From IMG/VR virus record IMGVR_UViG_2703718781_000011: a stretch of DNA of 14,139 nt; one strand, written 5' to 3'. The notes under the pieces are model-generated. The model was not told the origin of the DNA. It did no database searches and saw only the letters and a list, made by a program, of their open reading frames with translations. The position numbers and the translations under genes are program-made. Within the stretch, counting starts at the first letter, position 1; every line of letters starts with the position of its first letter. Below, one piece after another: positions 4,008 through 5,589 of the stretch. The DNA comes from a virus (Duplodnaviria > Heunggongvirae > Uroviricota > Caudoviricetes).

Positions 4008-4766
4008 TCAAGTGCCTTTCCTGGTCCAGCCATATTTTTTGAATGCAGGCGCCGCTTCATCGGTTTGTAGCCATTCTGCAAATCGACGGGTTTCATCATT
4101 TGCATCCTGACGTACTGTAATGTTCATATCACGCCATATCACGTAGTCTGGCGCTATTTCCACGACATCACCAATTTCTGGATTACTGGCTGCCCAGTCA
4201 GCCCAGGTTATCCAGACATCTGCTCCAGGCTGATTCTCAAGAGCCTTACGTGCAGTTCCGCTATTGGGCGCATATAAAATAATATTTTTTCGGATTGCGG
4301 CGACAGTTTCTATATTCCCTTTACGTCCGGCAATATCTTCCCAGACGCCAGTGCCTGATGTATTACTGGTACCACCACCATCATTAACAATTACGCCAAT
4401 CCCAGGTCTGGTCAGGTCGTCAATACTCCGGATATTTTTAGGATTACCTTTCTTTACCAGTAAAATACTTTTTCGCAGATAAAGAGGCTGAATATCTTTT
4501 TCACTGAAGCTGTCTTTATGGTCCCGAATGATAGCCAGAGCAGATTGTTCTGATGCGCCAAACAAGATATCTGCATTTTTTTTGGCATCTTCATTCCATT
4601 TGTTCTGTGGGCCGTAATGAACGTTCACTATAATACCTGTTTTTTCGGCATAAAGTTTGGCTGCATCAAGCAAGGCTGTATGCGGGCCACCAGGACCATA
4701 CAGATTGATATCAGCATAAGCAGCAGAAGACAGGAATATTAAAAAACCTGCCATTATGTTCCTCAT
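4008..4766 (-). CDS. Secreted ModA-like periplasmic substrate-binding protein (PBP type 2 fold, molybdate/tungstate/sulfate-binding family), orphan; 252 aa
   Basis: N-terminal Sec signal peptide MRNIMAGFLIFLSSAAYA with no lipobox Cys. Domain order and the C-terminal block AAPAFKKYGWTRK resemble E. coli ModA (AAEIFKRYGFTIK). Strong SD (AAAGGAG-6 nt-ATG). No permease or ATPase partner in the window. Confidence 0.75.
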   Translation of the reverse strand: MRNIMAGFLIFLSSAAYADINLYGPGGPHTALLDAAKLYAEKTGIIVNVHYGPQNKWNEDAKKNADILFGASEQSALAIIRDHKDSFSEKDIQPLYLRKSILLVKKGNPKNIRSIDDLTRPGIGVIVNDGGGTSNTSGTGVWEDIAGRKGNIETVAAIRKNIILYAPNSGTARKALENQPGADVWITWADWAASNPEIGDVVEIAPDYVIWRDMNITVRQDANDETRRFAEWLQTDEAAPAFKKYGWTRKGT

Positions 4767-4930
4767 AAAAAACTCCTTTTATTGGTTATCATGAAATAAA
4801 GTTATAAACACTACAAATAATATATATTACATCCAGATAAACTTATCCGACTTTACCTCGTGCATAGCTTGTTATTTAAAGTCAACAAAATAAGGAAAAT
4901 TATACGCATATTGAAGAGTATAAACCTTAC

Positions 4931-4958
4931 ATGTTGATTACATTTTTGTAATCAACAT
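4931..4958. repeat. Perfect inverted repeat ATGTTGATTACA-tttt-TGTAATCAACAT (12-bp arms) in the AT-rich region upstream of the ModA-like gene
   Basis: Seen directly; about 165 bp upstream of the ModA-like start codon. Confidence 0.9.
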
Positions 4959-5039
4959 CCTGTTTGGAATAGCCAGCCTTTAATGGATAACTATTTCTGA
5001 CAATGCAATGAGTATAATCAAGTCCATCTTCCACTGAGA

Positions 5040-5589
5040 ATTAGAGGCGGCATGCTTTTTCCGGCTCTTGCCGGATATCCGTAATTGTCCATAATCTGCA
5101 GATTTATACCTTCTGCATGACCTGTCAGCGAAAATTTGTCCGGTGTTTCTACGGGAATGACATCAAAGTTACACGCACTCGCGTTACCGTGTAGACCTAC
5201 TTTCCTGCACTTGCAAGATCACAGTGGTGTAACCGTAACAGGAATTTATTCTCTGGACCGGCAGTAAATCCCTGAGTGGCGTGGTTCCCATATCAATTTC
5301 CCGCCAGGCAGCCTCCATTGCCAGCGTACAGGCTGGAGCCATGACCTGCCCTTTAAATCTGGCCCGACCATCCCACCGGACGTGTTCTTCTCCCCTGAAC
5401 TTAGGTACAGTCATCTCCAGTGGCACAAAAGTGTCAGCGCCATAATTTTTGACCGTTATCGCGCTACGGATATTTTGTTGACTGGTGAAAATCACCCCGC
5501 AGAATCAGGCTTATTCCCTTAACCTGGGCTTTCATCCTGACCGCCGCCTCACTACGACCAATCAGACTGCCGATGCATTTTACCTTCAT
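5040..5589 (-). pseudogene. Decayed coding region: three consecutive protein-like reading-frame segments in different frames, no intact start
   Basis: Minus-strand segments MKVKCIGSLIGRSEAAVRMKAQVKGISLILRGDFHQ (5589-5470), ...IRSAITVKNYGADTFVPLEMTVPKFRGEEHVRWDGRARFKGQVMAPACTLAMEAAW... (5495-5184) and ...FDVIPVETPDKFSLTGHAEGINLQIMDNYGYPARAGK... (to about 5040) abut each other with frame changes. Family not recognised. Confidence 0.3.

Follow-up and report, generated by a model that had tools for sequence, protein, structure and literature searches.

The locus described here raises the question of what a periplasmic binding protein does when its gene is carried by a prophage with no transporter beside it. 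The gene lies on the minus strand at 4008-4766 of IMG/VR virus record IMGVR_UViG_2703718781_000011 (Caudoviricetes), a 14,139-nucleotide (nt) stretch of DNA referred to below as the window, and is listed as an open reading frame (ORF) of 252 amino acids with an ATG start. The original prediction, made from the sequence alone, treated it as an unknown gene for a ModA-like protein; the observation itself stands, however the gene is not unknown, its DNA being identical to that of the named gene paa (adfO). Positions 3700-5700 match the paa loci of O145:H28 Escherichia coli that produce Shiga toxin (STEC) and of other strains, EHEC among them, with 100% identity over 2001 nt, RefSeq labels the identical locus paa, “AcfC family adhesin Paa” (WP_001449026.1), and GenBank phage records of PPompW prophages, also 100% identical, carry the label Paa/adherence factor. 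By this identity the ORF is paa/adfO, a named, studied, and already described virulence-associated gene of E. coli O-island 57, encoding a periplasmic ligand-binding protein of the PEB3/AcfC family. O-island 57 corresponds to prophage CP-933O in strain EDL933 and bears adfO (= paa, z2053) together with ckf, with ompW as its insertion site in O145:H28 (PMC9144400; PMC8565820), and adfO and the hok-family gene ckf are reported always to occur together (PMC8565820). The present gene shows no difference from this known system of enterotoxigenic and attaching-effacing E. coli, with which it shares DNA, protein, neighbours (hokD/ckf, a pixH pseudogene, and a DUF1627 gene), and prophage type. The paa region is found in 623 of 5426 complete E. 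coli genomes (~11%), with at least 80% of the 4008-5200 query covered in 577, and at least 80% of 3700-5700, which includes the hokD-side and DUF1627-side flanks, covered in 573. As paa is a routine marker in STEC virulence typing, its rediscovery adds nothing. With regard to its role, we conclude that paa is very probably a self-contained cargo gene, whose product is periplasmic and acts via the binding of a small anion and via a host partner that does not belong to an ATP-binding cassette (ABC) transporter.

Paa matches the Pfam family SBP_bac_11 (PF13531) over residues 20-247 with an E-value of 5.5e-34 and a score of 118.3 bits (cut-off 25). Its closest solved structures, identified by phmmer against PDB sequences, are those of Campylobacter jejuni PEB3 (E 1.2e-81, query residues 11-248) and Vibrio cholerae AcfC (4jb7, E 3.5e-81), with sulfate-binding protein structures matching at ~1e-4 only, and no ModA structure among the matches at E up to 0.01. 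The NCBIfam modA model TIGR01256 reaches 18.3 bits (cut-off 62.5), matching residues 212-246 only, with the sulfate/thiosulfate-binding models (Sbp, CysP) scoring 22.6 against 288, 21.5 against 155.5, and 19 against 308 bits. As these models fall far below their cut-offs, the description “ModA-like” is valid only at the level of the Pfam family, and the true relatives of Paa are PEB3 and AcfC. ModA, Sbp, and CysP do share a Pfam family or clan with Paa (SBP_bac_11, the type II periplasmic binding fold), however in addition to their low scores neither modBC nor cysTWA lies beside any relative examined. In an alignment of 29 family sequences from very different bacteria, Paa agrees with the consensus in all columns where conservation reaches 90% or more, with the conserved residues retained including YGPGGP, the G..WED loop, and the W.DW motif. 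Judged from these comparisons, Paa is a full-length, intact periplasmic binding protein of the PEB3/AcfC/Paa branch, and looks functional.

The secreted periplasmic-binding-protein fold put forward in the original prediction is borne out by the SBP_bac_11 match together with a Sec signal peptide, MRNIMAGFLIFLSSAAYA, read from the sequence at 4713-4766 (minus strand), with cleavage predicted before D19. By inspection this N-terminus, which is followed by DINLYGPGG, combines a hydrophobic core with a single basic residue and the cleavage motif AYA, and the crystallised PEB3 chain 2hxw_A begins at the residue aligned with Paa residue 19. No lipobox cysteine, beta-barrel, or other anchor is evident in the Paa sequence; a periplasmic location without a membrane anchor is predicted, and AcfC has been located to the periplasm by fractionation (PMC5976639). 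PEB3 (PDB 2hxw, 3fj7, 3fjg, 3fir) aligns with Paa over its full length, with an identical SNTSGTGVWED loop, and like Paa is secreted, lacks an ABC partner, and was formerly labelled an adhesin; unlike Paa, it is chromosomal, N-glycosylated, and under BumSR regulation, and its Lys135 (Glu in the 3fir sequence) aligns with a Thr in Paa. AcfC (VC_0841, PDB 4jb7), reported to share 47% identity with Paa (PMC5976639), is likewise a periplasmic protein, a colonisation factor, and encoded in horizontally acquired DNA, however its gene is found in the pathogenicity island, 48 bp downstream of acfB, which encodes a chemoreceptor, whereas the paa module described below has no partner gene.

The window contains no ABC permease or ATPase gene, as originally noted, and the identical annotated locus holds only phage genes, hokD, and a fimbrial pseudogene (ORF list and RefSeq). 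Homologues consistently lying beside such genes were named in the original prediction as the mark of a transporter fragment. The neighbours of 34 full-length family loci, 34–87% identical to Paa and taken from one genome per species, were surveyed by searching the flanking 4 kb in either direction for motifs of ABC ATPases and for multi-pass membrane proteins, with Pfam applied to the immediate neighbours, a survey of motifs rather than full annotation. An adjacent ABC permease and ATPase pair was found at 0/34 loci in these motif scans and selected Pfam scans, and the original prediction was not refuted on this count. Besides acfB in V. cholerae, histidine kinases are neighbours in Methylopila and in one Campylobacterales genome, two Endozoicomonas species have an anti-sigma (zf-HC2) gene upstream of the family gene, membrane proteins of the YeiH family (PF03601) are neighbours in Flavobacteriia, in Limnobacter, and in a gammaproteobacterial genome, and Burkholderia has a TehA/SLAC1-family channel. 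A Lipoprotein_15 gene lies downstream of the family member in both Endozoicomonas and two Vibrio species, and the Providencia alcalifaciens homologue (L009) adjoins a phage-type integrase gene. The orphan state is a property of the whole PEB3/AcfC/Paa family, with the recurring neighbours being sensors or non-ABC anion proteins. The repeated proximity of the family to sensors, and never to an ABC importer, is an argument that a role in signalling or ligand sensing lies behind the “adhesin” label.

Genes for a chemoreceptor, histidine kinases, anti-sigma factors with Lipoprotein_15 proteins, YeiH-family proteins, or a TehA/SLAC1 channel directly adjoin the family member at loci L017, L021, L032, L018, L020, L022, L025, L023, L024, L028, L030, and L031, and an ABC transporter at none of them. 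In Aeromonas dhakensis (L012, 3781-4806), the gene immediately upstream of the family member, in the same orientation, codes for a 341-residue protein that is predicted to cross the membrane seven times and is unmatched in Pfam. The chromosomal homologue of Escherichia albertii (L005), 87% identical to Paa, adjoins mannose/sorbose-family phosphotransferase system (PTS) genes (EIIC, EIID), is not in a prophage, and lacks both the AT-rich leader and the inverted repeat discussed below.

The upstream region of paa was originally described as an AT-rich island of acquired cargo, and both its composition and its distribution support this description. The GC content is 0.29 at 4701-4900 and at 4801-5000 (200-nt segments), with most of the window at 0.45–0.55. 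In a blastn comparison with the syntenic prophage of STEC1588 (L086), homology stops at 3886 and returns at 5465, delimiting a lineage-specific island of 1.58 kb (3887-5464) between the hok/sok locus and a small ORF downstream of the DUF1627 gene. The STEC1588 prophage has an ORF6N-domain gene in the same slot in place of the paa island, the pattern of presence and absence between syntenic phage genomes by which phage morons are recognised, and paa sits, as prophage cargo, between the replication gene P and Q. The lambdoid phage morons share with paa a variable cargo slot, atypical base composition, a hairpin and T-run after the gene, and a conserved upstream region; unlike them, the paa island is composite, consisting of a pixH remnant and a paa module also found on plasmids, and its promoter is only a candidate. 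In the STEC1588 prophage (L086, 2281-4070) the ORF6N-domain gene is accompanied by a RelE/ParE-type toxin gene and a helix-turn-helix gene beside hokD, such that this part of the P-to-Q interval differs in cargo between the two prophages. A perfect 12-0-12 palindrome, CCGATATGGGAATTCCCATATCGG, lies at 3865-3888 on the left edge of the island, where homology to the STEC1588 prophage ends (3886).

Within the island, a module of ~1 kb (~3949 to 4970, minus strand) comprising the upstream region, paa, and downstream hairpins is common to paralogues on plasmids. These plasmid (“ETEC-type”) copies are ~86–90% identical to prophage paa and have only this module in common with it, with alignment limited to window positions 4015 to ~4960-4970, and with unrelated sequence beyond the module's limits in both plasmid alignments (A1 and A2). 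All 32 of 32 plasmid matches to the paa upstream region end at 4952-4970, and an alignment of 11 sequences with seven distinct upstream flanks confirms the upstream limit. The plasmid hosts are E. coli, E. albertii, E. marmotae, and Shigella, and the unrelated flanks include IS1, IS21, IS110, repA, a glycerol dehydrogenase gene, an autotransporter gene, and nleG. A terminator-like hairpin, CGTCCTTCAGGACG, with a T-rich tail (3978-4001, minus strand) was identified by consensus scan 7 nt after the paa stop codon and is kept in the plasmid paralogues, and a second conserved hairpin, ATGCCGC-TGGC-GCGGCAT (3954-3971), forms the module's downstream edge in alignment A2. At the other end of the gene, the ribosome-binding site (RBS) AAGGAG (4773-4778, minus strand) lies 6 nt upstream of the paa ATG, and ATAAAAGGA is invariant in 11/11 aligned copies.

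Upstream of the module, the island holds a decayed pixH gene (Pix pilus minor subunit; 4968-5431, minus strand), identified by tblastn against plasmids, which has frameshifts and an internal stop, and lacks its first codons and last 13 codons. Across 480 aligned positions, with the alignment stopping at 4968, the DNA of the remnant is 86% identical to the pixH gene on plasmid pEB2 of E. coli B7A, and the stitched translation of the remnant has no match in Pfam. The frameshifted fimbrial pseudogene annotated by PGAP at 4927-5459 overlaps the inverted repeat, however as homology to pixH stops at 4968 the tail of this ORF across the repeat is fortuitous. An interpretation of the repeat as encoding the C-terminal strand of a fimbrial gene, based on the FimA-type resemblance of the tail (DVDYKNVINM, then a stop codon), was rejected, with real PixH ending in DYYAALRFKLDYE; the plasmid copies share only the last ~12 codons of the pseudogene tail and no fimbrial sequence. 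The prophage has no other pix genes around the remnant, which implies assembly of the island from plasmid-type DNA, either ahead of its capture or in the course of it.

The perfect 12-4-12 inverted repeat reported in the original prediction, ATGTTGATTACA-TTTT-TGTAATCAACAT, is present at 4931-4958, where it forms the upstream edge of the module. Among 300 dinucleotide-shuffled versions of the whole window, 5 contain a perfect repeat of this kind (arms ≥12 bp, loop ≤10 nt), and among 5000 shuffled versions of the AT-rich segment 4767-5000, 7 contain an equally good one. Its core, TTGATTACATTTTTGTAAT (4934-4952), exceeds in length every other non-coding run of the module that is invariant among the 11 copies with their seven upstream flanks, including the invariant TATAAT and the RBS, despite the surrounding upstream region being only 73–80% identical in the plasmid copies, and the flanks diverge ~0–20 nt upstream of the repeat. 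A 38-mer containing the repeat is present in 608 of 5426 E. coli genomes and is confined to paa loci; a regulon motif used elsewhere in E. coli was considered and rejected on these grounds. The repeat is absent upstream of the distant homologues of the E. albertii chromosome, Citrobacter, Edwardsiella, and Providencia. An intrinsic terminator was likewise rejected, with the stem being A+T-rich, no U-tract following on either strand, and the terminator scan not reporting the repeat, whose hairpin has a free energy of -14 to -16 kcal/mol. Rfam has no match in the repeat, the paa leader, or the island, and to our knowledge none of the operator consensus sequences of FNR, CRP, Fur, Zur, TyrR, the LacI family, DeoR, ArgR, or IHF fits the core.

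The centre of the repeat lies ~43 nt upstream of a TATAAT hexamer (4899-4904, minus strand), a candidate -10 element for paa that is invariant in 11/11 copies and lies ~130 nt upstream of the ATG. No canonical -35 element accompanies this hexamer, and neither our own scan nor a consensus scan found a convincing sigma-70 promoter in the module. On this arrangement, the repeat is most likely a protein-binding regulatory site or an UP-like element of the putative paa promoter. We infer that the promoter of which it is part depends on an activator or is assisted by an UP element, and that independent rearrangements would have been tolerated only up to the repeat. That many independent rearrangements stop just upstream of a palindromic core makes this the first place to seek a regulator of paa.

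Taken together, the paa unit would behave as a moron whose own promoter drives its expression under repression of the phage early operon, as suggested by the invariant TATAAT ~130 nt upstream of the ATG with a weak or absent -35, and by the short hairpin and T-run after the stop codon, with the inverted repeat probably marking the upstream limit of what selection keeps. As regards expression in a lysogen, published RNA-seq shows the EDL933 gene to be induced upon incubation in bovine rumen and rectum contents (PMC8524897). By analogy with its relatives PEB3 and AcfC, Paa would bind a small anion in the periplasm and may hand information or ligand to a non-ABC membrane partner of the host. If Paa acts via such a partner, the published adherence and colonisation phenotypes would be largely indirect. 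Several points weigh against this interpretation. No partner gene travels with the module, such that the host partner is hypothetical, and the neighbour survey covers one genome per species by motif scan and selected Pfam scans. The promoter assignment is inferred from one invariant hexamer without a recognisable -35, and only the inner 6+6 bp of the repeat, with three more bases of the paa-proximal arm, are conserved in the plasmid paralogues. The perfect 12-bp arms may be lineage-specific, with extended arms of 9–12 bp confined to a single clade, which comprises the prophage, two plasmids of E. coli, and one of E. albertii. In addition, the literature still regards Paa as an adhesin whose mutants adhere less (PMC8565820, PMC11420993).

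The view that Paa is a true surface adhesin in direct contact with host cells accords with its name in databases and papers, and with the phenotypes of its mutants. An adfO mutant is reported to show reduced HeLa adherence and fewer secreted proteins (PMC8565820), and citing papers describe paa/adfO mutants with less attaching-effacing lesion formation or HeLa adherence (PMC8565820, PMC11420993, PMC10562709). However, the loss of several secreted proteins from the adfO mutant is a pleiotropic secretion defect that points to an indirect effect on adherence, and the sequence of Paa provides a Sec signal peptide only, with none of the anchors sought. Its periplasmic homologue AcfC is dispensable for adhesion to Caco-2 and HT-29MTX cells and instead affects chemotaxis to mucin (PMC5976639), and PEB3 is a small-molecule binder, described as a 3-phosphoglycerate binder or transport protein (PMC3417527, PMC12469816). 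Direct adhesion is consequently considered unlikely. Much less likely still is a fragment of an oxyanion (molybdate/tungstate/sulfate) ABC importer, that is, a stray ModA or Sbp feeding the ModBC or CysTWA of the host or sequestering the anion. The SBP_bac_11 match, the weak local matches to the modA and sulfate-binding models, the sulfate-binding structures at E ~1e-4, and the proposal that AcfC binds sulfate (PMC5976639) all lean in this direction, whereas the modA and sulfate models fall well short of their cut-offs, the best characterised relative binds phosphorylated C3 acids, and the absence of adjacent ABC pairs from all 34 family loci means that this explanation is already largely refuted by gene context. 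A service to the phage itself, through superinfection exclusion or anti-phage defence at a periplasmic or outer-membrane step of entry, is suggested by the position of paa in a prophage cargo slot beside a toxin-antitoxin locus, and interference with phage entry was among the roles originally proposed. This proposal finds no support, with no PADLOC match at E up to 0.01 and no function assigned to PHROG family 11834, to which Paa belongs; the module is also present on many non-phage plasmids, and homologues are chromosomal in Vibrio, Campylobacter, and E. albertii, making a phage-serving role extremely improbable.

With regard to the repeat, it is conceivable, though rather doubtful, that it plays no part in paa expression and is instead a relic of the pixH terminator or 3' end, a scar of recombination between pixH and paa, or a chance palindrome in AT-rich DNA. 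The repeat stands where the shared module ends, with ~10 nt between it and the pixH/paa junction; plasmid copies do not keep its outer bases, and the PGAP pseudogene ORF passes through it. A relic of pixH is however difficult to reconcile with pixH homology ending at 4968, before the repeat, with the different end of real PixH, and with retention of the core by plasmid copies without any pixH, whilst the lack of a U-tract on either strand speaks against a terminator, and the rarity of such repeats in shuffled sequence and the conservation of the core within a poorly conserved region speak against chance. Returning to the small-anion binder with a non-ABC host partner, a broader and quite tentative extension is that the whole PEB3/AcfC/Paa family may consist of periplasmic ligand-binding co-sensors that dock on membrane signal transducers or anion channels, being neither adhesins nor transporter subunits. 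The ~1-kb paa module might then be a portable “sense organ” handed to E. coli by phages and plasmids, with the repeat core as a host-controlled operator. Candidate partners seen beside relatives are the chemoreceptor AcfB of V. cholerae, histidine kinases, anti-sigma factors, and YeiH/TehA-type proteins.

The window as a whole is the early region of a lambdoid prophage of the O-island 57/CP-933O/PPompW type, with most genes on the minus strand (ORF list, RefSeq annotation, and Rfam), and paa lies between the replication genes (O-like, P, and the DUF1627 gene) and hokD-DUF968-rusA-Q. On the minus strand, the order is a cro-like gene, ydaT, the O-like gene, P, the DUF1627 gene, a small ORF, the fimbrial pseudogene, and paa, followed by hokD, two small ORFs, DUF968, rusA, Q, and two tRNA genes, with a CI-like repressor gene, ydfC, DicF/dicB, and an exonuclease gene on the plus strand. 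The hokD/sok type I toxin-antitoxin locus (= ckf; 3517-3819, minus strand), identified by RefSeq annotation and by an Rfam sok match of 103.9 bits at 3670-3819, is the constant neighbour of paa. The exonuclease-domain gene is split into overlapping ORFs at 11631-13151 and 13058-14098 (span 11631-14098) and is annotated as frameshifted in RefSeq, which suggests that the prophage is partly decayed. The DicF small RNA is found at 10936-10987 (Rfam, 76.7 bits), upstream of dicB, and the prophage thus bears a Qin-type cell-division inhibition cassette. A G+C-rich, perfect 12-6-12 inverted repeat, AACAAAACCCGC-TTGTGG-GCGGGTTTTGTT, lies at 492-521 between the Q gene and the tRNA genes; it resembles a bidirectional terminator, and is possibly the late-operon terminator on which Q acts.

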